A DNA stretch of 64,000 bases from assembly GCA_964016885.1 (NCBI GenBank), contig OZ024741.1, positions 296,980,001 to 297,044,000 on the forward strand. The letters are read 5' to 3'. The position numbers and the translations under genes are program-made. Positions 2,963-64,000 of this stretch are shown piece after piece (within the stretch, counting starts at the first letter, position 1; the number at the start of each line of letters is the position of its first letter). Below the pieces are notes generated by a model. The model was not told the origin of the DNA and searched no databases. It saw only the letters and a program-made list of their open reading frames with translations. Origin of the DNA: Eledone cirrhosa (Eukaryota).

Positions 2963-4039
2963 CTATCCGTTAGGGTATAACGTGGGGCTGTAATACAGGA
3001 AAGTTTTGTGCAATTTATGTTTACAAGCCGAAATTGCCTCAGATTTTTTGTTTAAGATGTGGTCTGTGGCGTAGAGTATTTCCAGAGTCTCAGCGGCGCA
3101 GAGGTCACATGGTATTTTATTTCCATTATACGATCTAGCCCTAGCTAGGATCTCCCAGTGTAACTTATATTGGGTATGGTTGTCTTTTAGACTCCAGATA
3201 TAAGCTGAAAGTGATGTCATATTCCTTCTTAGAGGGTAACGAAAAGAATGGGTATGCATGTAAAGACGCTGCTTGAATCTATTAGCGGTTAACCCTATGT
3301 AGGCCCTACGGGACGTGGGTGTTACAACCTTACATTTGTAGACAATGTTACTAGAGAGGCATTTCCCGGATAGGGGGCAATCAACCCGATTCCTACAATT
3401 ACAGTTAGTACTAACTACAGGGTTGCACGTGTTCCTACGGCCAGGTAGTTTAGCTAAATTTGAAGCTGTGATGTTATGTGCAAGGTTAGGAGTCGTAGAG
3501 TAAGAAATTTTAATAGTATTTCTATTAAAAATTTTACTATACTTATGTGTAGGGGGAAAATGCTTCGTAATAAGGGAAAGAAAGATCTTAGCTAATGGTG
3601 TGGCCACCTCCATATTATATGGTGGATTATACCAACAAATGCGACGGGATCTATTTCTTCTAGGTCTATTTTCGTACTCTGTATATGCTACCTTATCGAC
3701 AAATCCACTTCGAGCAAGAGCTTCATTGTAATAAGTGGAATGGTCGTTGAAAATAAGCTCGTTGGTGGAAAGACGGGAAAGCCTCAACGAAACGTTTCTT
3801 ACCAGGTTCTTGGTTATGCTGGCAGGATGGTTGGAATGCTTACTTATGTAATTAAGCGTATCATTCGGCTTTCTATACGGGTAATACAACCCATTCAATA
3901 AATTGAGGGTAACGTCGAGGTAATTAACGACCGATAGATTGGCCTCAACCTGTATAGAGAGGTTGAAGCCTTTAAAGAAGGCTGTGAGTTCTTTTCTGAA
4001 CCTGTCGCAAGCACGAGGTCCGCACTTAGTCATGGTCAA
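2963..4039 (-). CDS. Same PLE, 5'-truncated: RT thumb, CxC-x5-C zinc finger and GIY-YIG endonuclease
   Basis: NCNCRNRVDCPL, NIVY...AYIG, CDLC..E, ILN, CKH. First 150 aa nearly identical to the end of ORF 308..1822. Confidence 0.93.
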   Translation of the reverse strand: MTMTKCGPRACDRFRKELTAFFKGFNLSIQVEANLSVVNYLDVTLNLLNGLYYPYRKPNDTLNYISKHSNHPASITKNLVRNVSLRLSRLSTNELIFNDHSTYYNEALARSGFVDKVAYTEYENRPRRNRSRRICWYNPPYNMEVATPLAKIFLSLITKHFPPTHKYSKIFNRNTIKISYSTTPNLAHNITASNLAKLPGRRNTCNPVVSTNCNCRNRVDCPLSGKCLSSNIVYKCKVVTPTSRRAYIGLTANRFKQRLYMHTHSFRYPLRRNMTSLSAYIWSLKDNHTQYKLHWEILARARSYNGNKIPCDLCAAETLEILYATDHILNKKSEAISACKHKLHKTFLYYSPTLYPNG

Positions 4040-4961
4040 AAGACCTTCGTTGACAAGCCTTCCAGTGCCCCCTTAGCGCCCCTCAAGGCTTCAAACGCCC
4101 CCTAACGTTCTCTTGCTCCAAGACGCCCCCCCCCCTCCCCCCTGACCTCCGAAAGCCCCGTTGAGAACCTTTTCCTTAAAAGCATGAAATATTCTTTTTT
4201 TTTTTTTTTCAATTTTGCATTTACTTTGTTTCATTTGTGTTAATGTTTACATAGTTGAACTACTTGCTTCTTTTTTCAGCATTTTGGGACTTGTGTTACC
4301 TTTTCAAATATTTTCTCATTCTTATACATGTTGTTTTCTTTGGTTTCCATTTTTTTTCCGACTTGTCGTCTAGAGGATGATAATGTAGTAAGCAAAGGCA
4401 CTAGTTGCCGCGGCAGAGCAATTAGGTTGCGCTTGGTAAATCGCCGGTCCTCTGGGTCGTGGGCGTAGAAATACCCAAAACAACTTCCGCCCAACTAAAC
4501 AATTCGTGCCTTTCTTTTACTTATAAAAGAGTTGCAGCTTCGACACCAACCCAGCAGGACGTATCTAAATCCCTTCCTTAGAGCAACTCACAAGATGAAA
4601 TATTTACCAAAGGAGTTCAGCCCTATCAGCAAGGGCACAGCAACCTCTTATGTAAAGATATACCACAACTACGTCTAGTATTTTTTCTGTAATGTTTTAA
4701 GAAGAAATAAATCCTTTGTTAAATATCCTCGCGGTTCTTTCCTCTCACATGGACTACCGACCTTACGCACACAGCCTGAACAAAACATCTCTCTTTAACT
4801 GCTAAAGACTCAGATGGTACACGTGGTGTCATATTTTCTTACAGGCATAGTTGTTTCCAGGCACTGTTCGACCTGGAATCAGTGGTTGTACATTCTACTA
4901 AGTTTAAAGCTTAGTGTATTCATTCATGCATACAAACATACATATATAGACACACACAAAA

Positions 4962-14518: not shown

Positions 14519-14563
<45 letters not shown>

Positions 14564-14590
14564 CAGAGATACAGAGAGAGGGAAAGAGAG

Positions 14591-17500
14591 ATGGTGTACA
14601 CAGGCAGAAGACCAATTGACCATGGATGGGCATGGGTCATTTTGTCAGGTAAATTAATAGTTTTTCACTTAATTCTTTTGTTCTTTACTAGTTTCAATCA
14701 TCATACTGTGGTCATGCTAGGGCACCACCTTACTCTTTTCCTGATTTCAGTCATCAGACTGCAGTCATGCTGGGGCACCACCTTGCTCTATCACTGGTTT
14801 CAGTCATCAGACTATGGTCATGCTGGGTGTACTGGAGCAATGTGAAATCAAGAATTTTGCTCAAGAACACAACACTCTACCCAGTCCAGGAATTGAACCC
14901 AAAACATTATGATCGTACGGTAAAGACACTTGCTTGAGATTACACGCAATGGGCTTCAACCCAAGACATTAAGATAAATTGCTTTAAAATTCATGAAAAT
15001 ATCTGAAAGAAATATTTTGAAATTTGTATACATTTTATTTTATTTGGTAAGTCTGGAAAATGGAGCAGTACCCAATAGTCCTCTGATACTGAAAAGGTCA
15101 ATGTTGTTGATGTCCTGCTTACATTGTTGTAAGTTCAATCCTTTGAGAAAAACATGAGTTAGGAGTGAGTTCTAGGGGGCCAATGTTCTGGGCATGAAGT
15201 TCAGTGTAAGATGGACTGTGCAAGACGGACTGGACATAATAGTTAATGTAAGTCATGATAGCTGGACACAATATAGATAATGAGAGGAGGAGATGAGTTA
15301 GGAGTACCCGAGTGAAGGTGGCATGAGTTCAATAAATTCTGAAGAGCAGAGACCATTGTAGTAATGATAGTAGAGGTGAGGAAGATGATAACTCTTTCAC
15401 TACCATATTTCTAATGGCTGTTTCATATGCTGTTTTTCAATTATTTTATGAAGAATTGAAAGGTGTTACTAAAAGTATTTATTATTTCATTATTAAGATC
15501 GTATTTGTAATAAATGGTTCTTATAAAAATTTATGTTGGAAGATTTTAATTTAAATAGAAACCTTTGAAATGGGTGATTTTGTTTCATAGAACTAGAACC
15601 AGTTTTGGCTGTGTTGATATTAAGAAAGTTAAATCTATTCACCAATTTCTGAGAAATAGGTTTGGAATTTGGTTAGAAGGAAACCAACTCTCTGATTTCT
15701 TTTGTTTACAGCTACAACATCATTAATGATAATCGTGGTGGGTAATGTTCGGAGTTTTGGCATATTTTTCTTGGAAATGCAGCAGATGTTTGACACATCT
15801 TCATCAACTATATCTACACTTCTCAGTATAGAACATATGTCAATATGTATATCAGGTAAGAATATAACATTTGTCAACTATATCAACAATCCAAGAGCCA
15901 CTCTCTGTAAAAGGGGAAAGTTTGACCAACAGCCTGAGGGAAGCCAATTTTCGAGTTAAAGCTCTCATTATAGAGGTTGGCTTTGTGAGCACATCTGCCT
16001 ACAATCTCATGAAACAACTTTCAATCTTTGAGAAGATGAGGACCAAAGTCCTAAAGGCAATATCAGAGGCAGCAGAAAGGATTTCAGTCGAGGAACAAAA
16101 ACTTCCTCCTTACCATTTGAGAGGCACACTAAAGGAAGTAACTCTGAGTGAGTCGTGATTTGTAGTCAGTGATACTATTGACATCTCACCGTTACTAAGT
16201 TAGAATATAGCAGTTTTGCCATAGCATGTAAAATAACTCTATCTTCTTTTTAATTTCATTTTTTTTTACTTTATTTTCTAGGAGTTCTGGCAATGAACTT
16301 CCTCATCAAATTTATTTCAATAAGAACAATTGTTCTTTGCAGTTGTGCCATGTGCTCTTTGACATTTATCTTTGATTCTGTTACTAAGAATCCAAGTTTA
16401 CTACCACTCAACCATATACTTAATGGTAAGCATCCGTTTTCTTTTAAAATTTAATGAAAGTTATTTAACTCTTAATATCATGTACCACATGAAATTGCAT
16501 TAACAAGACATTCTTAAAAAGTACAAAACAGTTTTATGATTGCATCACATCACAAATTAAAGTTTTTAGTATACTGCAAATTTTCACAATGATTTGTTCA
16601 CTTGTAAAGATACAATAAACATTTGAATTAATAAATGATCTGAAATCAAATTAGCAAGACATTCTTGAAAAATACAAAATAGCACGATGATTGCATCACA
16701 TTAAAAAGTAATGTCTTTACTCTAATACTGCAAATTTTCACAATGATCTGTCAACTAGAGGAGATACTATAAACACTTGAATTAATAAATTCGCATTTAA
16801 CTATTTTCTACCAAATCATTACAAGATATTATGAGTTATTAGATTACTAAAAAATTTAAAATAAATATCATAATGCATCTGCCATCTTTTCTGTCGGGAC
16901 TGTGAGACATGGCACATTGTGGTGGGTCCCCCATCAGTTGTGATGATGAGTGATCAACTGAAACATCAGACTCAATAAATTATAGTTGAATGTTCCATAG
17001 ATATATATACCTTTAACATAATTCTGAGGGAAATTCAGCATAACATAGTATGTCACAAAGTTGGACATTTGAATTACAGGGCTTCTGAACAGTTTCACTC
17101 ACAAAACTTGACTTGACCCAAGACTATAGAACAGATTTAATCAATTGTGCTCTCCTTAAGATAAAACATGGCACCTTCTTCTTAATTTTTAGAATTCATA
17201 ATTACCAACAAATCATCTATAGTTGTTTATTTTTCTTATTTTATTTCTCCTTCTCTTTAATACCAGGAGCTGGAGTGTCTACGATATATGGATCTTGCAT
17301 TGTTGTGCAGAGTACATATTTTCATCGTTACCTTGGCACAGCAAATGCAATATCAGCTTGTGGAGTTAGTATAGGTCAATTCACACTTCCTTATTTACTA
17401 AACTTCCTAATACTAACTTACGGAGTCCGTGGAGCTCTTCTTCTCAATGCCAGTATCTTTCTACAATGCTTTGTGTTTGCTGCCCTTCTGCGTCCAATGA

Positions 17501-18853
17501 GTTACTATGATGCAATGACTACTTCAAAACTTAAATGTTTTACAGTTATAGAGCTAGAAGTTGTAAATTCAACTGATGATGCTACAATGGAAAAACAAAC
17601 TGAGTCATTAAAAGAAAAACCTGACCACAGCAGTGAAATACTTTCCTCTTCTTATTCAGGCTCTAACAACAGAGGAGACACTTGTGGACAAAATGATAAC
17701 TTGCAATCAGTCGAATCAAGCAAATTGGCTTCACATTCGCTTTTGTCACCTCTTGTAGTGAAAGAACAAATTGATTCAAAAGACAATGGCAAATGTGATT
17801 ACTCAAAAGAAAAATCTTCTATCGAAAGCATTGCCATTAAAACACCCTTACAAGGATTGTTGGATGAACTGAGAAGAAACTGGCAAAAACTTTTGGCTGC
17901 TACAGATTTCACACTATTTAAGGAGAAAATATTTATATGTGGCTTCATTGGAGCAATTCTTGGCAATGCTGTTTCCTCTCTGCCACAAATATTATTTCCA
18001 GCTCATTCAGTAGATTTGGGACTGACCTCTAAAGAAGGGATTGTTTTTCTCACAATTTCAGGAGTAGCTGATTTTGTAGGTCGTCTGCTCATAATCAGTT
18101 TAGCTGACCGGAAGTTTGTGAATCGTGCCCGACTGCTGGGAGTTAGTCTCATGATGCATGGAATAACTGCTTGTTTTGTATCATATTACACCAATTTCTT
18201 CCTATTTGCTATGTACTGCGCCTGCTATGGACTCGTCAGTGGCATACATTTCTCACTCACCAATACAGTCATTGTAGATTTTATTGGAGCTCAAAGAATT
18301 TCAGATGCAATTGGTTTTATAATATTAGGAACAGGAATTATTGGGACTGTTGCATTTCCTGTGATAGGTTAGTATTTTCTCTTCAATAATTTTCAATTTT
18401 TATAAAGCTTTCAGGGTTGTTTTTTTTTTTTATTATTTGTACTTTTAGTGATTTCGGTCATTTAATTGTGGCTATGCTGAATCTCTGCCGTGAAGAAATT
18501 GTGATCAACTATATCGCATTGATCAACACTTGAGGATAGAGTAGAAGACACTTGTCCAAGATTCCCATTGTGGGATTGAAACCAAAACCACATGACTGTG
18601 AAGTGAACTCCTTAACCCTGTACCCATGCCAGCATCTATCATTTAACTTTTGATTGTTTGTTTTCCTTTGTAAGTAATGTTTTTTTTTTATTTTGTTCTT
18701 TTTAATTATTCCTCAGGCTACCTACGTGATGTCAGTGGTTCATATAATATCGGATTTATTCTGAATGGTGTGGGTCTCCTCATCAGTGGGGCCATGTTTC
18801 TCATGGAGGCCTTTATATCTTATCCTAAACACCAACGAAGGGCAGATATATGA
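14591..18853 (+). CDS. SLC16/monocarboxylate transporter family MFS protein, about 527 aa; exons 14591-14648, 15712-15855, 16282-16425, 17267-18367, 18717-18853
   Basis: PIDHGWAWV N-terminal motif (cf. PDGGWGW), YF.RY.G.AN, YGVRGALL, LLRP, TM8 ADFVGR, GYLRDVSGSY. All introns GT-AG phase 1; spliced length 1584 nt, open. Confidence 0.93.
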
Positions 18854-35585: not shown

Positions 35586-35792
35586 AATATATTCTTTATA
35601 CCCACATTTCTGTTTCTTAAACTTCTTCTTCATATTTTCTCCGGATTTTAAAGCATATTTTATTATACGTTGAGCAATCTCCGACGCCGGTTGACTCCAT
35701 CCAATGTGACTACCTAGTAACATTGGAGTACTGATTTATTAATTCTTCACACTCCTTTACAGTCGAGTAACCTATCAACCTACGTCTTTGAA

Positions 35793-38075
35793 ATGGAAAA
35801 ACATCATTGTGGTATGTCCTTAAAAAACATACCCATTCAAGGTAGAAAAGAATACATTCTTGGTATGATACAAAGGACCAACGAATTTATTCGGCGGATT
35901 AGATGGAAGGCCTTTCACTTCGATAGGAATAAGATTACACAAACTTCCGACACCAACAACGATAAGTTTGGTTTCAAATCCTACAAAAACCCACCCTCTA
36001 ACCCTATTCTGGATTCTTTCGAGCAAGACCTAATGAAAATGATAACCGGAATCAAATTTGCAAACGGAAGGAAAAACGAACTGCAACGGGAGATTAAAAC
36101 TCTACTCGACAACCTGAGAAATACCAAAGGAATTATTATAAAGGCAGACAAAACATCGAATCTATATACCCTAGATGTAGAAACGTATAATAATTTTATA
36201 CGTAAGGAATTACATACGAAGTACAAAAAAACAAACGCAACTACACTAACCAACATTAATAACGCAGCATGTGATATTGTTAAGAAACGGAAAATCGACG
36301 ACAGAACGGAACCCCTATGTCCAGCTACACCGACTTTTAATTTGAAGGACCATAAGGCTAACTTCGATACTAACCCTAAAATTAGATTAATTTGTCCTTC
36401 AAAATCTGATATAGGTAGAATCAGTAAGTACATATTAGATCGTATTATCCCCCAAGTTAAGGCTAAGGTAGATATTAAATTATGGGGTAATACTCAACAG
36501 GCAATAAGTTGGTTCAATAACATCAGTGACAAAAACAAATCTTCTTTTATTCAATTCGATATAGATGAATACTATTCCTCTATTTCACCTGAAACTCTGC
36601 ATAAGGCCCTCTCATTCGCTAAGGCCAACTCGGACCTCACAAACGAGGATATTAATATTATACTTGAAGCTAGACGCACAGTAGTCCATTTTGAAAATAG
36701 TTATTGGGTCCGCAGAGATAGACCCTCGGAATTTGACATTACGATGGGTTCTAATGATTCGGCGGAAGTTACAGATTTGGTTGGAATCTATCTGGCTCAC
36801 AGACTCCAGAGCGAATTTATTGACCTCCACGGTGGAATCTACCGTGATGATGCACTCCTATTAGTCAAAACTATGAACAAACAAAATCTAGAAAGGCGAC
36901 GTAAAAACATTAGGAAACTTTTCTTAGAACTAGGACTTAGTATTACCTTCGAACACAATCTTAAAGTGGTCAATTTCTTGGATGTCACCTTCAACCTTAA
37001 TAACGGTAATATAAAGCCATTTCACAAACTTAATGAAAATCTCAAGTACGTTAATTTAAGATCGAACCACCCCCATTCCATTATTAAATCTATCCCTAAA
37101 AATATATCCATAAGGATCTCCAGACTATCGTCTAATTTGCAGACCTTCAACGAGCATGCTGAGTATTATAACGACGCACTTAGAAAAGCTGGTTACTGCG
37201 AGAAAATAGAATATCTAGAAGATAACCACATAAATACTATGAATAAATCACATTTAAGTCGAACTAGTATTGCACCACACAGACACATTAATAGGCATAA
37301 TAATAGGTGCAAACCAACAAATAGAGTTAGACGTAGAGAGTACATATGGTATAACCCCGTGTACAATATTTCTATTAGCACTAAGATTATCTCACAATTC
37401 TATACACTGATCAATAAACACTTTACAACTTCACATAAATACTATAAAATCTTAAACTCGCGCACCATTAGACTCTCATACTCCACTGCACCTAACATAG
37501 AACAACTAATTAAAAAACTCAACTCAACAATACTAAATAAGTACATCCCTAATGACACAGCGCACCAGCATAGCGACATACAACGCACTAACACGCAGCT
37601 ACAACCCCACCAAACTATCCAGGATACTACTGCAAAACATAAAAATAACTGTAACTGCACTAAACCAGGTTCGTGCCCATTGAATAACCAATGCCTAGCA
37701 CGCAATATTGTCTACCGATGTACAATAAATTCCGGAACCAACAAATGGTATTACGTCGGATGTACCGCAACATCTTTCAAAGCTCGCCTATACCAACATC
37801 GATCTTCGATCAAGCATGAGAAAATGCGCTCCGTAACAACCCTCGCCGACAAAGCCTGGCAGCTTCGGAAGAACAATCAAGCATTCTCCCTTGATTGACA
37901 AATTATTGCATTTGCGCCAGCATATAAGCAAAATCACCGATTTTGTAAATTATGCAATATGGAGATATACTGCATTTTAACGTCGGAAAACAAACTTTTG
38001 AACAGCAAAATTGAACGTTCACTTTACTGTAACCATCGTTTAAAAACGACTTTTTCTTTTTTTAAATGTATGTAA
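35793..38075 (+). CDS. Naiad RT/GIY-YIG protein: 701 aa to an in-frame TGA (37896-37898), then 58 conserved residues to TAA at 38073-38075
   Basis: KNIP, DKT, YRDDA, NFLDV, CNCTKPGSCPL, NIVY..YYVG; after the TGA: CKLCNME, LLN, CNH. Confidence 0.9.
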
Positions 38076-49760: not shown

Positions 49761-50274
49761 CTAACCGCTTGTGTTGTTGTTTTTTTCTTTTCTCTTCCTT
49801 TTCCTCTTGCTTTTTTTTTTTCATTTCCCTTTCCTTTATATTATATCTGTCTGTGTTTTCGTTCTGTAAGCATTTTGGCAGTATCAGTAGACGGTCTGAG
49901 TTCAGATCCCGCGGAGGTTAACTTTCATCCTTACTGGGTCGATAAAATAAAGCACCAATAATGCACTGGGATAATTGCTGGCCTTGTGCCAAATGTAGAA
50001 ACAATTATTATATTTCTTTTTTATACAACTGTAAGAAATAGTGTTTTTTATATTACAAATGAAATTTATTACGTTATTCTAAATTATGACGTCATAATGG
50101 CAAATTGAGAGAAAAGATATTTTTGGATTTTTATTCTTTTACCTAGATATATATCAATGCGAATAGCTCGATATTTTCTTGTGTGAAAAAAATCAATCAA
50201 TTATTTCATTTGTTGTGATATATCGATACATTATTGTTTATATTTGTTAAATTTACTTTTCTTTTTCCATAAAT

Positions 50275-51324
50275 ATGACTGAAAAGAGCAAACGTCGCTC
50301 CGGCCGTTTTGCAAAATTTATTGCCGGAGCCCAATATTTGGCTGAGATTAGCATTCCTTGTTACCGTCGACCAGGACGATGTCAGCACCAAGATGACGTA
50401 TGTGTAGCTCCACCTTTGGAGGATCCATTACCACTAGCACGAAGACTGGATATAAATGAATCGGCTCAAACAAATATCAAGCAGGGTAAGTAATCATGAA
50501 AACAGTTGGTAATATATGAAATACAAGGAGGGCGCTTGGTTGTTCCAGCGTATCAGCCTCGCTATCATCCAGGGTAACGCTGCAAGCGTTGCTGGCTTGC
50601 CTCAAAAATTACTGGACAGGTTTCCCAGTGCTCCTTGCGATATTATCTTTTGCCCTCGTAGCGGCTCATTTGTCCATCCCTGTCGCCTGCCTTTTCTTGT
50701 ATGTGGTCCTAGATGTGTGTATTACCTGCTTATGTTTTTTTTTCTTTTTTTCCTTTCCCTTTCCTTTTTTCATTGGTAAAATAAATTAAAAAATCATTTT
50801 ATTAAGATTGTATGAATTTACAGTTGAAAAACATTACAAATATGTTTTGAATATATACATAAATAACATTACAAATGCGTAAATAACATTATAAATTGCT
50901 TGCAATTCGTTCAGAAGAACATTACAAATATAATGTCTAAACCGTGTATAAAAATATAATATAATTCATTGAACAATATATTATATTTGTTTGTGTTTCC
51001 GTTCTGTAAGCATTGTTATACATATTTGTTTTTATACAACTGTGAATAAAACATACTTAATTAGGGGGAAATGAAAGAAAAATAAAGACAAGCTAATTAA
51101 ACAGTTGTCCTATATTTTGTAGCTTGTCTTGTAGACCATTGTAAATCTATTTTCACAAGAGATATCTCTCGCCCACATCAAAGTGGGTGGGTGATCTTCC
51201 CGTCGATCCTGAAACTTAAGGTCGCTCATACATGTTAAGTGTATAACATTTTATATTAAATAAGCTCTTTTGCACTCTCAATAGATTGAGCAATGTCTTC
51301 CTTGACCTTTTATCTACGGATATC

Positions 51325-51380
<56 letters not shown>

Positions 51381-52937
51381 CTATATATACATTGTTTCCT
51401 TTGTTTTTGTTTACAAACTTGCCAGAAGTGAAAACTGATTGTCCAAGTGAGACGCCAGTTATTGACGGTGAGTTATTCATACATAACATTTCTAGTTTTA
51501 TATATATATATATATATATATATGCCGATCTACTTCACCACGGGATGGATGTGCATGGCCACCAGAATATCACAATGATCTCTCCTCGCTGACCTCGATA
51601 CTTGTATCCGAGCGGCAGCTGGGAAGATATGCAATGTCAGGTTTGACGATGCTGAATAGCAACAGGCCACTTTACCTGTCAGATATGGCGGCCTTGGCCT
51701 CCGGTCCCTGATCTCGCTGGCTTTGCAGGCGTTTCTTTCATCGGTAACCCCATGCCGCGTCCTCGTCAGCAGGGTTCTCCAAAACACAATAGAACTCTCT
51801 GTGTTCAAGGAACGTGAGGTCGCCTGTGAGACGTGGGACATGCTGCGACTTATCCCGGTAGACGTCCCTCCTCCTTCTCCCCCTGCTGACGTCAAGTCCC
51901 CCCAAAGCGCATGGGATTCCATCCAGTGCAGCCTGGCCTCAGATAGGCTCACACGCCAGCTCGATCAGCACCGCCCTGCCTGTTTTCGCGCGAGCTCCAA
52001 ACCCCACAGTGGTGCCTTGGTCCATGCCTTGCCCTGCTTCTTCCCTGGCACGCAGCTGGATAACGATAGCCTGTGTATCAGCATTTCCTTGAGGCTTGGA
52101 CAGAGCCACATAAATGTCGCTGTGGATCCACTGTGGACTCTTTCGGACTCCACTCGCTTTCCTGTCACCACAGTGCTGGCCGCCTTCCACACCATGTTGC
52201 CCTCAACGAGGTCATTAAGCATGGCTTCGACGCTGCAGACTCCCCCCCCCCCCAGCTCGAGCCGGTGGGATTGGACTGAGGGGATGGAAAAAGGCCAGAC
52301 GGTATGATCATCTTCCCGTTCCGCAGTGGAAAACCCCTCATCTGGGATGCCACTTGCAGCGACACAGCAATGATTGCGTAAACATCTGATGAAGTCACAT
52401 TAATAACCATGTAACAGAAATATATATATAATGCAATAAACAATTATAGTGATTTAACCCCATCTTAACTACCATTATTTCATATCCGCCGAGGTTGACT
52501 TTGCCTTTCGTCCTTATGGGGTCGATAAAATAAAGTACCAGTAATGCACTGGGTAATTGCTGACCTTGTGCCTAAAGTAGAAACAATTATTTCATATCAA
52601 ACAAATCCCGCCGAGGTTAACTTTGCCTTTCATCCTTACGTGGTCGATAAAATAAAGTACCAGTAATGTACTGGGTAATTGCTGGCCTTGTGCCAAAAGT
52701 AGAAACAATTATTTCATATATATATATATATATTTGTATGGTTCACCATTGGGTAGAACTGGTCATTCCGTTTAGTTAATTATGGTGTAATATTAAGAAA
52801 AGCACTCTACGTTATGCAACTCATTTGTTGTAGATGTTGATTCCTGGTGCAGGAACGGAGTTAAACGTTTATTTAATTAAAATAACAGAAGGCAGAACTG
52901 GAAATATTTCCAGTCTGCCCTTCTCTTGTTTTAATTA

Positions 52938-52978
<41 letters not shown>

Positions 52979-53222
52979 CAAGGTTTAGTAAATAGAGAAA
53001 AAGTTTTAAAATAAATTTCAAAAAGTTCACTGTACTTACTATATGTGCCTTTACCGCGGTTTCCGATCTCAAAATAAACAGATAATCCAAGCGGATTTCC
53101 ATTGAGAAAGAGTTCTTTATCAGAAGGCTTTTCTCACTCGGAGAATATAAAATTCTCGAGTTCAAATCACAAACTGGCGCCATACAAAACTGTTCCCGAA
53201 TGAGAGTGAATTAGAGAAGAAA

Positions 53223-53262
<40 letters not shown>

Positions 53263-56200
53263 GAGCGAGAGGGGCAGTAAGAAAGGAAGACAGTGATAAG
53301 TGTATGATTGTTATGTTTTATCTTTTTTTCAGTCATACCTCTGGTAGAGATTGCAAGACCTGATTTACGGAGATGTGAGTATTATTATTATTATTGTTGT
53401 TGTTGTGTGGTGGCTTGGCAGTATCACTAAAATGTCAGACAAGTTGCTTTGCAGCATATAGTTACATCCCTTTACATTCTGAGTTCAAATCTCACCAAGG
53501 TCAGCTTTGCCTGTCATCCTTATGAGGTTGATTAAATAAAGTACCAGTAACACACCGGAGCCGATTTAATCGACTTTATCCTTCCCCAAAAAATTGTTGG
53601 GTCTTGTGCCTAAATCAGAAACCATTATTATTTTGGTTGTTACGGCCCTTGCCATTCTCAGTTCAAATACCGCCGAGGTTAACTTTGCCTTTCATCCTTA
53701 CGGGGTCAATAAAATAAAGTACCAGTAATGCACTGGGTAATTGCTGGCCTTGTGCCAAAAGTAGAAACAATTATTATTTTGGTTGTTGTTGTTACAATTA
53801 TGGATAACAGAGACCTCATCATTCTAGCAAGTGACTTGAAATGGCATGTTAGGCAACAGCAAGATAGCTAGTCTGGAGTGCATGATATCTATGGAGATGG
53901 CTAGAGAAGTGAAGAGGGATTAAGGCTCCAAGAATTCAGTGATGCAAAATACTTAACCATTTGCAACAGTAACCAATCAGGCAAGCATGCTAGCCAGATT
54001 GGCTTCATGCTCAATAAGTTTTAAAAAACTTTATGTAGAATCTCTACAAGACAACTTGTTTTAGGTTGTTTATGGAAAGTGTGGCTTGAGAAAAGTATCA
54101 GCCAAACAAAATTGGGGCAGCAAAGAGCAATACCAAAGCTCAATGACAAGTTTACATATCATGTAAAGAAGCAGAAAGCAAGAAGTTTGCTAATGCCTTG
54201 TTAACTGAGAGTCAACAGGGTGAGGTGTTCCACATTATGAAGCAATGTCTCAGTGTGAATCAAAATGCTGTTAGAGAGAAGTGTGTTTGAATAGACACAT
54301 GTACAATTAACCCCACTGAGGATCAGCAGAAGGAGGCCTGGAAATGCTACTGTGAGAGGTTGATGAATGTGGATAATGAGTGAAATGAAAAGGTACTACT
54401 TCATGTAGACTCAACAAAAGACTTGTTTATCAAAACAGACAGTTTTAGAGTCAAAGAAGCAATCAGAGTTGTGGACGGGTGTTGCACAACTACTATCACA
54501 TGTAAGTCAGATTTATATTGAAGGTTGAACCGCCACCTTCTTTTAGAAGGGAGGCACTGCAAGCCTTCTTGGTTGGGTGATTTGCTAGTTAAGAAAGCTG
54601 TATGGTGAACTCATCTAAATGGATTGAGGACAGGACTCTTTGTTTCTTGTCAAACCCTCATCAACTTCTATAAGTTCTACTTGAAGAGGAAGGTGAGGGT
54701 AGAAAGGGACATGCTGCTCCTTAATGTGTTTTATGAAAGATAGCTGACAGTGGCGAGTTTCTCCCTGGAAATACCTTAAACTGTAGTCCACACTATTTTC
54801 TATGTATAATTATTACTATTTTTACTATTGTTATTCTTACTGTTTTGTGATGTCCCCTTTACTTAATGTAAAGCTCATTCTTTAGTACAATACCTGGACA
54901 TCACTATGTACTCCTGGTTTATATAGTGTACACACATACAGATATACACACATACATACATACAAACATACACATACGTTTACTATAGTACTTGACTCAG
55001 TAGGTCATTATAACTTACCATTTTTAAATTGTAAGTTATAATACAAACGCTTTCTATTTTTTAATGAATTATATTGTTACTAATTATATTGTTACTAATT
55101 ATATTGTTACATATTATATGGTTGTATATACAACAAACACTGTAAGGCTATTTCCTCAGTTATACAAATTGTAGGCTTCATAACAAACATCATATTAGCC
55201 ATGGGATCCTTTTTTAGATAATGTGGTATTACCAAATGCTTTCCTGACACCAGCCCTTTTGTTATGTCTTACAATATTATGAACCGTATATGTATGTGTG
55301 TGTGCGTGTGTGTATATATATATATAGAAAGAGAGAGAGAGAGACTGAGATGTAGGATAGATAGATAAATATTATTGTCATTTTTTTCTGTTTTTAGTTC
55401 CAACTTCTGTAGAAACCGCTGAGCCAGATTCATCAACATGTGAGTATTATTATTGTTATTATTTGGTACAGAGACAAGCTGTAACACCAATCTGAGACAC
55501 TGTGATCCCTCCCCTCCACAGAGACAAGCTGTAACACCAATCTGAGACACTGTGATCCCTCCCCTCTACAGAGACAAGCTGTAACACCAATCTGAGACAC
55601 TGTGATCCCTCCCCTCCACAGAGACAAGCTGTTACACCAATCTGAGACAGTGATCCCCCCTCCACAGAGACAAGCTGTAACACCAATCTGAGACAGTGAT
55701 CCCCCCCCCTCCACAGAGACAAGCTGTAACACCAATCTGTGACAGTGATCCCTCCCCTCCACAGAGACAAGTTGTAACACCAATCTGTGACAGTGATCCC
55801 TCCCCTCTACAGAGACAAGCTGTTACACCTATCTGAGACAGTGATCCCCCCTCCACAGAGACAAGCTGTAACACCAATCTGAGACACTGTGATCCCTCCC
55901 CTCCACAGAGACAAGCTGTTACACCAATCTGAGACACTGTGATCCCTCCCCTCCACAGAGACAAGCTGTAACACCAATCTGAGACACTGTGATCTCTCCC
56001 CTCCACAGAGACAAGCTGTAACACCAATCTGAGACAGTGATCCCCCCCTCCACAGAGACAAGCTGTAACACCAATCTGTGACAGTGATCCCGCCCCTCCA
56101 CAGAGACAAGCTGTTACACCAATCTGAGACAGTGATCCCTCCCCTCCACAGAGACAAGCTGTAACACCAATCTGAGACAGTGATCCCTCCCCTCCACAGA

Positions 56201-59200
56201 GACAAGCTGTAACACCAATCTGTGACAGTGTTCCCTCCACTCTACAGAGACAAGCTGTAACACCAATCTGAGACAGTGATCCCTCCCCTCCACAGAGACA
56301 AGCTGTAACACCAATCTGAGACAGTGATCCCTGCACAGAGACAAGCTGTAACACCAATCTGAGACAGTGTTCCCCTCCCCTCCACAGAGACAAGCTGTAA
56401 CACCAATCTGAGACACTGTGATCCCTCCCCTCTACAGAGACAAGCTGTAACACCAATCTGAGACAGTGATCCCTCCCCTCCACAGAGACAAGCTGTAACA
56501 CCAATCTGAGACAGTGATCCCTCCCCTCCACAGAGACAAGCTGTAACACCAATCTGTGACAGTGATCCCTCCCCTCCACAGAGTCAAGCTGTAACACCAA
56601 TCTGTGACAGTGATCCCTCCCCTCCACAGAGTCAAGCTGTTACACCAATCTGAGACACTGTGATCCCTCCACTCCACAGAGACAAGCTGTAACACCAATC
56701 TGTGACACTGTGATCCCTCCACTCCACAGAGACAAGCTGTAACACCAATCTGAGACACTGTGATCCCTCCCCTCCACAGAGACAAGCTGTAACACCAATC
56801 TGTTACAGTGATCCCTCCCCTCCACAGAGACAAGCTGTTACACCAATCTGAGACACTGTGATCCCTCCCCTCCACAGAGACAAGCTGTAATACCAATCTG
56901 TGACAGTGTTCCCTCCACTCCACAGACAAGCTGTAACACCAATCTGAGACAGTGACCCCCCCCCCCCTCCACAGAGACAAGCTGTAACACCAATCTGTGA
57001 CAGTGATCCCTCCCCTCCACAGAGACAAGCTGTAACACCAATCTGAGACACTGTGATCCCTCCCCTCCACAGAGACAAGCTGTTACACCAATCTGAGACA
57101 CTGTGATCCCTCCCCTCCACAGAGACAAGCTGTTACACCAATCTGAGACACTGTGATCCCTCCCCTCCACAGAGACAAGCTGTAACACCAATCTGAGACA
57201 GTGATCCCCCCTTCCACAGAGACAAGCTGTAACACCAATCTGTTACAGTGATCCCTCCTTTCCACAGAGACAAGCTGTAACACCAATCTGTGACAGTGAT
57301 CCCTCTCCTCTACAGAGACAAGCTGTAACACCAATCTGTGACAGTGATCCCTCCCCTCTACAGATACAAGCTGTAACACCAATCTGTTACAGTGATCTCT
57401 ACCCTCCACAGAGACAAGCTGTAACACCAATCTGTGACAGTGATCCCTCTCCTCCACAGAGACAAGCTGTAACACCAATCTGTGACAGTGATCTCTACCC
57501 TCCACAGAGACAAGCTGTAACACCAATCTGTGACAGTGTTCCCTCCTCTCCACAGAGACAAGCTGTAACACCAATCTGTGACAGTGTTCCCTCCCCTCCA
57601 CAGAGACAAGCTGTAACACCAATCTGTGACAGTGTTCCCTCCCCTCCACAGAGACAAGCTGTAACACCAATCTGTGACAGTGTTCCCTCCACTCCACAGA
57701 GACAAGCTGTAACACCAATCTGTGACAGTGTTCCCTCCTCTCCACAGAGACAAGCTGTAACACCAATCTGTGACAGTGTTCCCTCCACTCCACAGAGACA
57801 AGCTGTAACACCAATCTGTGACAGTGATCCCCCCCTCCACAGAGACAAGCTGTAACACCAATCTGAAACACTGTGATCCCTCCACTCCACAGAGACAAGC
57901 TGTAACACCAATCTGTGACAGTGTTCCCTCCACTCCACAGAGACAAGCTGTAAGACCAATCTGTGACAGTGTTCCCTCCTCTCCACAGAGACAAGCTGTA
58001 ACACCAATCTGTGACAGTGTTCCCTCCTCCACAGAGACAAGCTGTAACACCAATCTGAGACAGTGATCCCTCCTCTCCACAGAGACAAGCTGTAACACCA
58101 ATCTGTGACAGTGATCCCTCCCCTCCACAGAGACAAGCTGTAACACCAATCTGTGACAGTGTTCCCTCCACTCCACAGAGACAAGCTGTAACACCAATCT
58201 GTGACAGTGTTCCCTCCACTCCACAGAGACAAGCTGTAACACCAATCTGTGACAGTGTTCCCTCCTCTCCACAGAGACAAGCTGTAACACCAATCTGTGA
58301 CAGTGTTCCCTCCTCCACAGAGACAAGCTGTAACACCAATCTGAGACAGTGATCCCTCCTCTCCACAGAGACAAGCTGTAACACCAATCTGTGACAGTGA
58401 TCCCTCCCCTCCACAGAGACAAGCTGTAACACCAATCTGTGACAGTGTTCCCTCCACTCCACAGAGACAAGCTGTAACACCAATCTGTGACAGTGTTCCC
58501 TCCACTCCACAGAGACAAGCTGTAACACCAATCTGTGACAGTGTTCCCTCCACTCCACAGAGACAAGCTGTAACACCAATCTGTGACATTATTCCCTCCT
58601 CTCCACAGAGACAAACTGTAACACCAATCTGTGACAGTGTTCCCTCCACTCCACAGAGACAAGCTGTAACACCAATCTGTGACAGTGATCCCTCCTCTCC
58701 ACAAAGACAAGCTGTAACACCAATCTGTGACAGTGTTCCCTCCTCTCCACAGAGACAAGCTGTAACACCAATCTGTTACAGTGACCCCTCCTCTCCACAG
58801 AGACAAGCTGTAACACCAATCTGTGACAGTGATCCCTCCCCTCCACAGAGACAAGCTGTAACACCAATCTGAGACAGTGATCCCTCCTCTCCACAGAGAC
58901 AAGCTGTAACACCAATCTGTGATAGTGTTCCCCCCTCTCCACAGAGACAAGCTGTAACACCAATCTGTGACAGTGTACCCTCCACTCCACAGAGACAAGC
59001 TGTAACACCAATCTGAGACACTGTGATCTCTCCCCTCCACAGAGACAAGCTGTAACACCAATCTGTGACAGTGTTCCCTCCTCTCCACAGAGACAAGCTG
59101 TAACACCAATCTGTGACAGCGTTCCCTCCACTCCACAGAGACAAGCTGTAACACCAATATGTGACAGTGATCCCCCCTTCCACAGAGACAAGCTGTAACA

Positions 59201-62200
59201 CCAATCTGTGACAGTGTTCCCTCCTCTCCACAGAGACAAGCTGTAACACCAATCTGTGACAGCGTTCCCTCCACTCCACAGAGACAAGCTGTAACACCAA
59301 TATGTGACAGTGATCCCCCCTTCCACAGAGACAAGCTGTAACACCAATCTGTGACAGTGATCCCTCCCCTCCACAGAGACAAGCTGTAACACCAATCTGT
59401 GACAGTGTTCCCTCCTCTCCACAGAGACAAGCTGTAACACCAATCTGTGACAGCATTCCCTCCACTCCACAGAGACAAGCTGTAACACCAATATGTGACA
59501 GTGATCCCCCCTTCCACAGAGACAAGCTGTAACACCAATCTGTGACAGTGTTCCCTCCTCTCCACAGAGACAAGCTGTAACACCAATCTGAGACAGTGAT
59601 CCCCCCTCCACAGTGACAAGCTGTAACACCAATATATTTGTTGTTATCACCTGTCACTGCTACCTCCCATGATGTTGACACATTTCCCTAGTAACACTGA
59701 AGTGACATCTCCAAGGAGCAAGCCTGGGTTTGAGTATATTAAGATCCTAGGTTTCCCAGACACCACAATCTTCTTCTCACCCTCACTGGTGTAGTTCAAA
59801 TGATGACAGAAGAGTAGTATGTTTAGTACCAGATTGGTTTCAGAAGGTGCTGGAAAGGTTTTGAGTCAAACAGCACAACACCTCAAGGGCTCCACACTAG
59901 ATTTATTATAAGTTTTACTTCCTCTCCTTTTTCCCTCACACAAATGATGACAATGACAACTACCACCACCATGGCATGAGGTGGAGGTCTATAACCATGG
60001 ACAGGTCTATATCAGAAACTGTCAATCAGGGTCAACTAATCTCTCTACATGTGTCAGGCAGGGGTCATCATACCCTAAAGTAGTGAATACCCTATATTAT
60101 GCTAGAAATAACAGCTAAATCTCCCTCAAATCATTGTGTGTTATGTATGTACATTTGTATGTATAAGAGAATAAAGGAGATATTTGCATGGAAGTTAAGC
60201 CTAAGAGATAAAGCAGCTACTTCTCCTTCAAATCACATCTTTCTAATTTTGGTACACCACTACGTACTCCTATTTGTATATTATACACACACACACACAT
60301 ATAGAGAGGAAGTTCCAAACATGGAAGCATGGCCTTAGAGTCAACTTGTCTAGGACTAAAGTTCTAGTATGTAAAAAGGAAAATAGGGTACAGATACCCT
60401 CTGGGAAGTGGTATGCTCTGTGTAGGATAGGAGTAGGCAGAAACTCTATTTTATGTCCCAAATGCAGACTATGGGTACATAAAAGATGTAGTGGAATCAG
60501 AGGTAAGCTATCTAAGAACGTATATTTTATGTGTGGCCGATGCTCAGGTGCAGTAAGTAGCAAGGACCCACTGGATGATATCTCCTTCAACTGCCCAGAT
60601 GGTTCTATCGAAACAGTAGACACCTTCCGTTACCTGGGTGACAAAATCAGCAGTAGAGGAGGGTGCTCTGAAAGTGTAGTAGCCAGAGTTAGAACAGGAT
60701 GGAAAAAGTTCAGAGAGCTAATACCGCTGTTGGCCACAAGCGGTTTTTCTCTAAAAATGAACGGCAGATTGTATGATACTTGTATACGAACAGTGATATT
60801 ACATGGTAGTGAGACTTGGTCATTGTGTGCTGAAGACCTGCGTAGATTAGAAAGAAATGAAGCTTGCATGCTCCGATGGATGTGTAATAGTAACGTGCGC
60901 AAAAGGCGAAGCATAAACAAACTAAGAGGGAGACTAAGCATAAGAGGTATCAAATGTTGTGTTCTGGAAAGGAGATTGTGTTGGTATGGACATGTGATGC
61001 GTATGAAGGACGACAGCTGTATAAAAAAGTGCAGGGCAATGAAAATTGATGGAAGCTACGGAGTGGGTAGACCAAGAAAAACCTGGAACAAGGTGATAAA
61101 AACTGACCTTGCCCACCTACACCTCTCTAAGACAATGATACTGGATCAAGACCTTTGGCGCCATGCAGTTGTACAGAAGACCCAACTACCACGGCATACG
61201 AACCTACAGTCAGTAGGCACCTCTTAACTCAATGTACACCCCACCGCCACTCCCTACCCCATCCTCCCTCTCCCATTCCGTCCACTGTGTCAATGACACA
61301 ACAGTCCACACTGTAAGGTGGCCATGTAAGAGACACAGTGAAAAGGCTCCCAGTCCACACTGTAAATGTGGTTGGTGTTAGGAAAGCCATCCAGCTGTAA
61401 AAAAAACCTGCCAGAGATGCTTCCATGAGAGCGAGACACGGTCTCCCGCCCATTCCCGCATCCAATGGAACAAAACCGTCTAATCCATGTTAGCGTGGAA
61501 GATGGACATTAAACGATGATGATGATGATGATGATGTTGATATATATATATATACACGCGTGTTTGCTATAATATATTTTGTTTTTGTTTTCAGACACAG
61601 TCAATTTGGTCTCAGTAGGTCTCGGTCAGAGACCAGTTAAAAATGGTAAGTTATAATACAAACACTTCCTAGTTTTTAATTAATACATTAACTAACGATA
61701 TTGTTACCTATTATCTTGTATTATGTACCGAGGTTGACTTTGCCTTTCATCCTTACGGGGTCGATAAAATAAAGTACCAGTAATGTACTGGGTAATTGCT
61801 GGCCTTGTGCCTAAAGTAGAAACAATTATGTACAACAAACACTTTAAGGCCATTTCGTCTGCTATACAAATTATAGACTTGATGACAAACATCATATTAG
61901 CCATGGGTCCTTTTTTAGATAAAGTGGTATTGGCAGATGCCCTTCTTGGCACCAATCTTTTTTTTTGTTGCTGTCTTTCTGGGGATTATTATAGTTTCAG
62001 ATACCTTATAAGACAGGACGATTCCCCACCAGTGTATCAATAGAAACCATGGAGTTATCCATGGCTAGCTATTTAGGATGAAAACAATGGATGTTGGATA
62101 AAACGAAACACACACACACACAGACACAAAACAAGAAGAAATAACTAGACAGAAAGAGAGATGTAGAAATGATACTTTTTGTCTTTTTTTGTTTTTAGTT

Positions 62201-62240
62201 CTAACTCCTGTAGAGACACCTGAACCAGATTCATCAACAT
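50275..62240 (+). CDS. Orphan micro-exon gene, 3' partial; exons 50275-50485, 51426-51467, 53333-53374, 54989-55030, 55398-55439, 61595-61645, 62199-62240
   Basis: Each micro-exon has AG and GTRAGT splice sites, is 42 or 51 nt, and is open only in phase 1. The spliced frame is stop-free. The first exon (ATG 50275, G|GTAAGT) is less certain. Confidence 0.75.
51525..52370 (+). mobile_element. CRE-clade non-LTR fragment (RT C-terminus, zinc finger, RLE), intronic
   Basis: [18 protein letters not shown]...GLHSLSC, GKRPDG...WDATC. Confidence 0.8.
53800..54470 (+). mobile_element. Highly degenerate RTE-like LINE fragment
   Basis: [16 protein letters not shown] motif; many stops. Confidence 0.5.
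55468..59633. repeat. Intronic 48-bp minisatellite, about 85 units (45-50 bp variants)
   Basis: Consensus ccacagagacaagctgtaacaccaatctgtgacagtg(a/t)tccctcccct. Confidence 0.97.
60300..61537 (+). mobile_element. RTE-clade LINE, 5'-truncated (ORF remainder to 61227, 3' UTR, (GAT)n tail)
   Basis: [38 protein letters not shown]; tail ttaaacgatgatgat. Confidence 0.9.
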
Positions 62241-62830
62241 GTGAGTATTATTGTTGTTGTTGTTATTATTTGGCAGTAACAGTAGAGGGTTGGACACCAT
62301 GCTTTGACGCATAGAGTTACGGCCCTTGCCATTCTGAGTTCAAATCCCGCCGAGGTTAACTTTGCCTTTCATCCTTATGGGGTCGATAAAATAAAGTGCC
62401 AGTAATACACTGGGGTATTGCTGGCCTTGTGCCAAAAGTAGAAACAATTATTATTATTATTATTATTTGGTCCAGGGACACGGTGATCCCTCCCATCCAC
62501 AGTGACAAGCTGTAACACCAATCTGGAACACAGGATCCCTCCCCCTCCACAGTGACAAGCTGTAACACAATATATTTGCTGTCATCACCTGTCACTCTTA
62601 CCTCCCATCCCCTAGGAACACTGGTGATATCTCCAGGGAGCAAGTCTGTGTTGGGTGTATTAAGATCCAAGCTTTCCCTGACATCACCACAATCCTCTTC
62701 TCACCCTCACTGGTATAGTCCAAAATATTACAGAACAGTATGTTTAGTACCAGTTTGGTTTCAGAAGGTCTGGAAAAGTGTTGAATCAAACAACACAACA
62801 CAAGTATATTATAAGTTTTACTTCCTATCA
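61595..62830 (+). repeat. Diverged duplicate of the two-exon module at about 54989-59930
   Basis: Matching exon pair and intron blocks; 59635-59925 resembles 62570-62826. Confidence 0.85.
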
Positions 62831-62940
62831 TTGTCTCTCACAAGACAGTGAGGTTATTTAACTCTAGTATATCTATATATTTCCAGGCTATATATATATA
62901 TTAAATAACCTCATTGTCTTGTATATATATATATATATAT

Positions 62941-63727
62941 GGAGGCACATGGCTTAGTGGTTAGAGCATTGGCCTTGCAATCGAAAGGTTGTGAGTTCAA
63001 TTCTCAGACTGGGTGATGTGTTGTTTCCTTGAGCAAGACACTTTATTTCACATTGCTCCAGTTTACTCAGCTGTGGGGTCCCTATCATTCCACTGCAAAG
63101 TGGTCGTGGAGGTGCCACAGCAAAAAAAGCACCCAGCAGTCACTGTAAATTAGGTTGGTGTTAGGAAGGGCATCCAGCTGTAGAAATCAAGCCAGAATCA
63201 GTTCCCGTCCCACCCTTGCAAGCAGGGAAAAGCGGACGTAAAATGATGATGATGATATATATATAAGACAATGAAGTTATTTATATATATAGCATGGAAA
63301 TATATAGAATTACTAGAGTTAAATAACCTCACTGTCTTGTATATTTAGCATACTAGGGCTAAATAACTTCATTGTCTTATATAAATAATGATGATGATCA
63401 TCATCATCATCGTCATTTCATTTTACGTCCACTTTTGGGATGGGAACTGATTCTGGCTTGATTTCTACAGCTGGATGCCCTTCCTAACACCAACCTCATT
63501 TACAGTGAGTGCTGGGTGCTTTTTTGCTGTGGCACCTCCACGACCACTTTGCAGTGGAATGATAGGGACCGCCAGTCCCTATCATCTCATTTCTACAGCT
63601 GAGTAAACTGGAGCAATGTGAAATAAAGTGCCTTGCTAGGGAAACAACACATCACCCGGTCTGAGAATTGAACTCACAACCTTTCGATTGCAAGGCCAAT
63701 GCTCTAACCACTAAGCCATGTGCCTTC
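62941..63727. mobile_element. Inverted pair of tRNA-derived SINEs (about 62941-63255 plus, 63395-63727 minus); another SINE starts near 63790
   Basis: A-box tggcttagtgg, B-box gttcaattc, (GAT)n tail; flanking sequence is also duplicated in inverted form. Confidence 0.85.
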
Positions 63728-64000
63728 ATATATATATATACAAGACAGTGAGGTTATCTAACTCTAGTAATTCTATATATATATAGTGCAGGCACGTGGC
63801 CTAGTGGTAAGGGTGTTGGACTTAGGATCATATTGTCGTGGGTTTGATTCCTGGGTTGCGTGTTGTGCTCTTGAGCAAAACACTTCATTTCACATTGCTC
63901 CAGTATACTCAGCTGAAAATGAGTACCAGCAATAGCTTGGAGTTAAACCCTGTGTTGAACTGGTGTCCTATCTGGGGGGGGTCTTTTACTCTCAGTTGCT

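Follow-up and report, generated by a model that had tools for sequence, protein, structure and literature searches.

A gene built from very short exons was identified in a 64,000-nucleotide stretch of the Eledone cirrhosa genome (GCA_964016885.1, contig OZ024741.1, positions 296,980,001 to 297,044,000; hereafter the window, G000:C2:296980001-297044000 in a genome of 3.0 Gb). It belongs to a mini-exon family of about 19 loci, whose arrays of tandem exons differ in exon number, contain dead copies, are depleted of nonsense changes and lie behind a first exon with a shared upstream element. In these genes symmetric exons are gained, lost and inactivated in the DNA without breaking the reading frame. 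The system is larger than first described and is a new variant of a known gene architecture. Our favoured explanation, to which we give a probability of about 60%, is that the window gene is a small divergent member of this family, encoding an anchored disordered repeat protein, possibly of the germline, whose length depends mainly on exons being gained and lost in the DNA. Judging from their sequence, the family genes are very probably transcribed and spliced as modelled.

The first-pass annotation of this DNA had described six tiny exons downstream of an ATG exon. All six lie exactly where it placed them (E2 to E7, Table 1), with YAG acceptors and GTRAGT donors throughout, and each is open in phase 1 with stops in phases 0 and 2. 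The alternative acceptor of the 51-nt exon exists and is in frame, the ATG exon ends in phase 1 and joins the phase-1 exons downstream, and skipping any combination of exons keeps the frame and creates no junction stop. These exons are real, far beyond chance. With a strong-site filter, the surroundings of the locus (1.37 Mb of strand-bases, excluding both gene copies described below) yield 63 candidates, of which 2 have a length divisible by three and are open only in phase 1; this gives 0.017 expected per 11.8 kb, compared with five of the six window exons passing. Under a lax filter, 8 of 240 background candidates qualify (0.069 expected per 11.8 kb), versus all six window exons. The earlier reading of the locus as a real multi-exon coding gene is supported, and its exon set stands as far as it goes. 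It did not include three more exons past the window, where the gene extends for about 9 kb (E8 to E10). No more 42-nt exons, for which a downstream scan had been proposed, were found in 200 kb. The spliced model encodes 235 residues, with the frame open across nine exons. A reading of E9 in another frame, with a frameshift and a stop, was ruled out, as a paralog on contig C28 conserves the spliced frame.

Table 1. Features of the mini-exon gene inside and beyond the window
Feature	Position	Strand	Description
Palindrome	50083..50098	.	TGACGTCA within a perfect palindrome of 16 bp, about 190 nt before the ATG
First coding exon	50275..50485	+	ATG, 70 codons plus 1 nt; basic N-terminus, LAE..PCY motif, phase-1 donor
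E2	51426..51467	+	42-nt symmetric phase-1 exon; no detectable likeness to the family exon types; missing from the inverted copy
E3	53333..53374	+	42-nt symmetric exon of PVE type; paralog of E5 and E7
E4	54989..55030	+	42-nt exon from an E6-type copy; weak acceptor; family donor flank present
E5	55398..55439	+	42-nt symmetric exon; shortened relative of the family 66-nt type
Intronic minisatellite	55468..59633	+	48-bp unit, 86.5 copies
E6	61595..61645	+	51-nt symmetric exon (45 nt from the AG at 61601); family donor flank GTAAGTTATAAT
E7	62199..62240	+	42-nt symmetric exon; shortened relative of the 66-nt type
Start of intron 7	62241..64000	+	extends out of the window
E8	L003:8028-8096 (past the window)		69-nt acidic symmetric exon
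E9	L003:8694-8862 (past the window)		169-nt last coding exon; stop 2 nt before the donor; C-terminal motif shared with the C28 paralog
E10	from L003:8996, end uncertain (past the window)		likely 3' untranslated exon

A duplicated two-exon module, as first proposed, is present in a shortened form. Including flanks, E4 and E6 share 78% DNA identity and E3, E5 and E7 share 70-88%, and since these flanked matches tie E3 to E5 and E7 and E4 to E6, the module is right in its shortened form. It is also borne out by the relatives, which are arrays of two exon types. Behind E7 stands a remnant of 2-3 units of the intronic minisatellite, and in a second, inverted gene copy the matching exon is followed by a 5-kb array; standing after matching exons, the minisatellite marks the duplicated module. 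The E4 acceptor has pyrimidines at 11 of 20 positions: a 31-nt deletion removed the pyrimidine tract and AG of the E6-type copy, and another AG is used. Because of this loss, E4 may be a pseudo-exon.

The inverted copy lies 310 kb from the window gene. Its first exon is 99% identical to that of the window gene, and the last exons with their intron are 100% identical, but it has only four symmetric exons (42, 51, 42 and 69 nt) compared with seven. Relative to the C28 paralog, a 16-nt difference at L003:8840-8862 shifts the last residues. Both C2 copies end in CFII-stop, which the relatives examined do not; we take this ending to fit a CaaX prenylation box.

The gene was first called an orphan, which is wrong within this genome, given the inverted copy and 17 further loci with a related first exon. 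The 169-nt exon matched C28 weakly (E 0.15), and the match was confirmed by shared upstream intron sequence (E 5e-12). Eighteen residues align in the spliced frame, and the proportions of synonymous and nonsynonymous differences (pS and pN) between the two motif exons are 0.71 and 0.49. Exons neighbouring the C28 motif exon share the donor flank with E4 and E6. The family donor pattern has 17 matches in the genome versus none for the control; two are window exons and two others have no exon in front. The donor flank led to a gene on contig C18 that has both a first and a last exon and 80 module copies, 68 of which are intact. With the C18 first exon as query, 18 of 22 candidates matched, of which 17 are real and one is a microsatellite artefact. 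The window first exon is too diverged to appear among these matches. Aligned with nine paralog first exons from other contigs, it shows 34% identity to the C18 type, and the alignment of 11 sequences has 17 invariant columns, including the LAE, PCY and NES positions. Each of the 16 paralog first exons whose ATG is intact ends in phase 1. The 17 related loci, mostly on two other contigs, and the two C2 copies make 19 loci, a count that includes one locus on a small contig that may duplicate a C28 copy.

The family module exons could also be followed across the genome. The acceptor pattern of the 60-nt exon type has 801 genome matches versus one for the control, and 91 of the first 100 listed fall in C18 arrays. 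E5, E7 and the second exon of the inverted copy resemble the 66-nt type, with none of 200 shuffles reaching the score in each case; E8 shows a weak likeness to it (6 of 200 shuffles). The best reading is that the family is amplified and lineage-restricted. Two further observations concern contig C28. Six more symmetric phase-1 exons (48, 36, 63, 60, 57 and 27 nt) were found at G000:C28:103600483-103675609 (L126-L133). They have family-like flanks, unrelated sequence and long introns, with no first exon in the 100 kb examined, and possibly represent an older family member. Downstream of the C28 paralog, a tandem repeat of about 30 kb that looks Thr/Pro-coding (G000:C28:28908000-28938000; L093-L096) may be satellite DNA or a mucin-like exon.

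The core TGACGTCA of the upstream palindrome, which we take to be a cAMP response element (CRE)/ATF-type site, is a common property of the family. The sequence common to both C2 copies starts at this palindrome. The core was found upstream of all 16 intact-ATG paralog first exons (at -447 to -636), of the inverted copy and, at a distance of about 1.9 kb, of a frameshifted copy; the element precedes the first exon at all 19 loci. In 704 kb around the window, ATGACGTCAT was located twice, only at the two gene copies. Eleven stretches around other sites of the upstream element contained no family exons. On contig C5 (G000:C5:12548249-13131360), nine sites, often about 17 kb apart, carry the 16-bp TGACGTCA palindrome as well, with a TATA-like box after it. 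This amplified unit occurs also at C4:235182527, C1091 and C1240 and is unrelated to the mini-exon family.

The arrays were read in detail in four of the 17 genes, one of them in part. The number of phase-1 exons, 60 and 66 nt long, ranges from 27 to at least 112 per array. In the C18 gene the two types alternate with a period near 1.45 kb, and one gene has higher-order aab triplets. The paralogs at G000:C28:45210021 (-) and 45247072 (+) form a back-to-back pair separated by 37 kb; their module copies number 43 and 27. Most of the 262 module copies read (238) are intact; the AG or GT is dead in 18, the length is frameshifting in four, and two bear stops. Both stop-bearing copies are the last module exon before the final exon. 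The four frameshifting copies keep intact splice sites and occur in two genes, and two of them are identical duplicates. Parsimony trees of 90 distinct live exons gave approximate counts of 54 synonymous, 189 nonsynonymous and one nonsense change. Nonsense changes are depleted, with one observed versus 9.4 expected (P about 0.0009). The ratios of nonsynonymous to synonymous change (dN/dS) of the module exons are 1.12 and 1.35, with similar values from a partial set; being near or above 1, they indicate weak amino-acid constraint. The module frame stays open while its residues drift.

These results bear on whether the arrays encode protein. Non-coding macrosatellite DNA or mobile-element cargo that only looks spliced would also give a dN/dS near 1 and dispersed, near-identical copies in both orientations, and ends that we take to be Helitron-like occur in the last intron of relatives. 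Such an origin would not account for the depletion of nonsense changes, nor for the strand and phase specificity of the family-donor candidates, of which 93 of 129 on the gene strand are a multiple of three and open, versus 0 of 12 on the other strand. Moreover, every array read follows an ATG exon with the conserved upstream element, and the examined copies share tens of kb of flank, as in segmental duplications. We regard a non-coding origin as very improbable. The Helitron-like sequences are short elements at L119:3090-3340 and L073:1700-1985, in the C18 and C28 paralogs respectively. At the element position the C18 gene has no C-terminal motif exon. A transposon with defined ends is unsupported for the C18 copies.

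Nine close paralogs have 47.6-122.9 kb between the same two landmarks, and one paralog pair shares 34.8 kb of upstream flank at 99.4%. These variable spans and the shared flank identify the copies as segmental duplications whose arrays are elastic. A comparison of the C18 and C28 types gives 31 differences over about 219 nt of first exon, versus 17 over 385 nt of the next intron. This suggests accelerated change of the first exon, and it is a suggestion only, because CpG sites account for 8 of the 25 differences within its first 150 nt.

In the family, a conserved basic first exon is followed by symmetric phase-1 exons that arose by tandem duplication. We propose that exon copies are gained by unequal exchange and lost by splice-site death, with the frame unharmed through symmetry, and that the number of exon copies in the DNA mainly sets the length of a disordered repeat spacer behind an N-terminal anchor. 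Unequal exchange and splice-site death are likely to explain the architecture better than regulated skipping. Exon duplication and death already explain the symmetry, as seen in the seven versus four exons of the C2 copies, the spans of 47.6-123 kb and the 18 of 262 copies with dead sites. We infer that DNA turnover, not regulated skipping, is the main reason for it.

The first-pass annotation had offered combinatorial splicing, as in the schistosome micro-exon genes (MEGs), or a variable low-complexity linker. The linker is supported. In the splicing alternative, symmetric exons are skipped in many combinations and each gene yields a repertoire of protein variants. Every skip is indeed frame-neutral and free of junction stops, E6 has an in-frame alternative acceptor, as do the PVE-type exons of the window and C18 genes at 15 nt into the exon, and the four frameshifting exons with intact sites would need to be skipped if their genes are alive. 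However, exons within an array are near-identical, so skipping alters length and hardly sequence; tandem duplication alone already requires symmetry; and most splice sites are strong consensus sites. Likeness to MEGs in the defining sense is also unsupported for the window gene, as it has no secretion signal. A role for combinatorial splicing of this kind seems unlikely.

Another view is that the family is coding and the window copy is a decaying or relaxed paralog with remnant exons. The E4 acceptor has been lost, the C-terminus is shifted by the 16-nt difference from the C28 paralog, all three first-exon differences between the C2 copies are nonsynonymous, and the window introns are filled with repeats. 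These signs are opposed by the 235-codon frame that is open over nine exons, by the seven internal exons, all multiples of three at non-family lengths (42, 51 and 69), and by the five diverged PVE exons without a stop. The upstream element, the ATG and the motif exon also persist at a dS of about 0.7-0.9 or more. Decay of the window copy is improbable on this evidence.

Several observations weigh against the favoured account of a small family member with a length-variable repeat. On exon sequence alone, E2, E3 and E6 have no significant likeness to the family types (25-39 of 200 shuffles for E6), and E4 likewise falls below significance. The dN/dS of 1.1-1.4 in module exons is matched by a value near 1 for the first exon of the window gene versus its relatives, and the parsimony counts assume trees, an assumption that gene conversion violates. 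Decaying copies are present in the family. L170 has a first exon with a frameshift, L169 contains a TGA, and two genes hold the four frameshifting exons whose splice sites are intact. The N-terminus encoded by the window gene has an amphipathic moment of 0.41, weaker than the 0.59-0.63 of the relatives. Finally, the gene models were built from DNA only, and the germline assignment is one of analogy.

The predicted N-terminus is helical and basic and ends in PCY and a basic cluster. An AlphaFold model of the C18 paralog first exon contains helices at residues 3-25 and 28-45, with a predicted local distance difference test (pLDDT) score of 83-88 over residues 11-40 and a predicted template-modelling (pTM) score of 0.35. 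The earlier statement that there is no signal peptide agrees with hydropathy, as the best 11-residue value within the first 40 residues is 1.12 and the N-terminus is basic; no clear membrane span was seen in the predicted protein either. Module regions are rich in Ser, Thr, Lys and Pro, and the window linker is rich in Glu and Pro with a net charge of -15. The combination of a basic amphipathic helix and cysteines hints at a lipid-modified membrane anchor, and KKRR clusters hint at nuclear import. Tentatively, the basic helix, PCY and basic cluster might tether the protein to membrane or chromatin, with the repeats as a spacer of tunable length.

No protein homolog was found at the set thresholds in protein collections, with coverage limited to longer proteins and with searches that are weak for short exons. 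One match (E 3.5e-4) to a 1138-aa repeat protein over 21 residues was judged to be chance. An Atlas search gave nothing at 0.8 or above, the PDB nothing below E 0.65, and Pfam no family above the cut-off in the first or motif exons. Such negatives are no proof of novelty. Publications on such a cephalopod family were not found in a search covering mainly open-access main texts. Read contigs from three runs, which represent at most one sample, possibly the source, pass through introns without exon-exon joints among those listed; they behave as DNA and have no bearing on splicing.

Expression in germline or testis is conceivable, at somewhat less than even odds. The proposal draws on analogy with amplified, fast-changing gene families and with CRE-driven genes, which in mammals include spermatid genes. 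In Octopus maya testis, about 85% of transcripts have no known match, according to the part of the report available (PMC6341066). A wider scenario would be a cephalopod germline family whose disordered protein is tuned both by DNA copy number and by RNA skipping, with 4 to more than 100 symmetric mini-exons. Its amplification and fast first-exon change would reflect genetic conflict or sperm competition, and the window gene would have branched off, shrunk and acquired a C-terminus of prenylation type. We consider this full scenario improbable as well.

Other features of the window were recorded. A Major facilitator superfamily transporter gene (MFS_1, E 4e-18), presumably monocarboxylate-transporter-like, occupies 14519-18372 and onward on the + strand, about 30 kb upstream of the mini-exon gene and on the same strand. 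Long retroelement-like open frames lie at 308-1834, 2963-4072, 35721-37898 and 60247-61227. In a Pfam scan of three such frames, two had no family and 60247-61224 had a weak PHD_2 match.

The mini-exon family, with about 19 loci and roughly 800 copies of one exon type, is probably absent from or fragmented in the current annotation, given that it had no match in the protein collections searched. It provides a candidate set of fast-evolving reproductive genes in cephalopods. It also offers a clean way to test whether arrays of symmetric mini-exons serve to diversify splicing or are a footprint of repeat turnover at the DNA level.

The family can be compared with three known systems. In the available portions of the source on schistosome MEGs, these genes are described as secreted, with a signal peptide and 10-20 exons of mostly 15 bp (10.1101/2023.06.21.545858). 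As far as that portion goes, the present genes resemble MEGs in having short exons, mostly multiples of three, long introns, a lineage-restricted distribution and resistance to annotation. All seven internal exons of the window gene are multiples of three and, at 42-69 nt, fall inside the MEG range of 6-81 bp, far above the 15-bp mode. Unlike MEGs, the family has no signal peptide, and its exons, of which a gene can have more than 100, arose as tandem copies of two types. Searches with the first and motif exons gave no homolog, but such searches are weak for short pieces and the collections may not include MEGs. In the section of that study at hand (PMC13252187), the exon-7 arrays of DAZ in human Y amplicons are described as repeatedly duplicated and deleted, so that the number and the subtype composition of their copies differ among paralogs. 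On the points covered there, both systems have amplified and inverted paralogs and a tandem short-exon array that varies in copy number between paralogs. The present family differs in having two exon types rather than one, has no demonstrated sequence relation to DAZ, and contains no RRM; no Pfam family scored above the cut-off in the first or motif exons, and the 235-aa model leaves no room for an RRM elsewhere. NBPF genes with Olduvai units form a lineage-restricted amplified family with intragenic tandem units of exon doublets, according to the accessible text (PMC9313022). To that extent they share with our family intragenic tandem exon doublets (here 60/66 nt), lineage-restricted amplification and higher-order patterns. 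No match to Olduvai (DUF1220) was found in the five exon products scanned, which did not include the module exons, too short singly. In Olduvai doublets, as described there, an exon of about 52 nt is paired with a large one, whereas here both exons are short and individually symmetric, so that single exons can die without a frameshift. The cephalopod family is thus an invertebrate parallel to the DAZ and NBPF arrays with a simpler rule: each exon alone is frame-neutral, so exon birth and death can be read directly from the genome.

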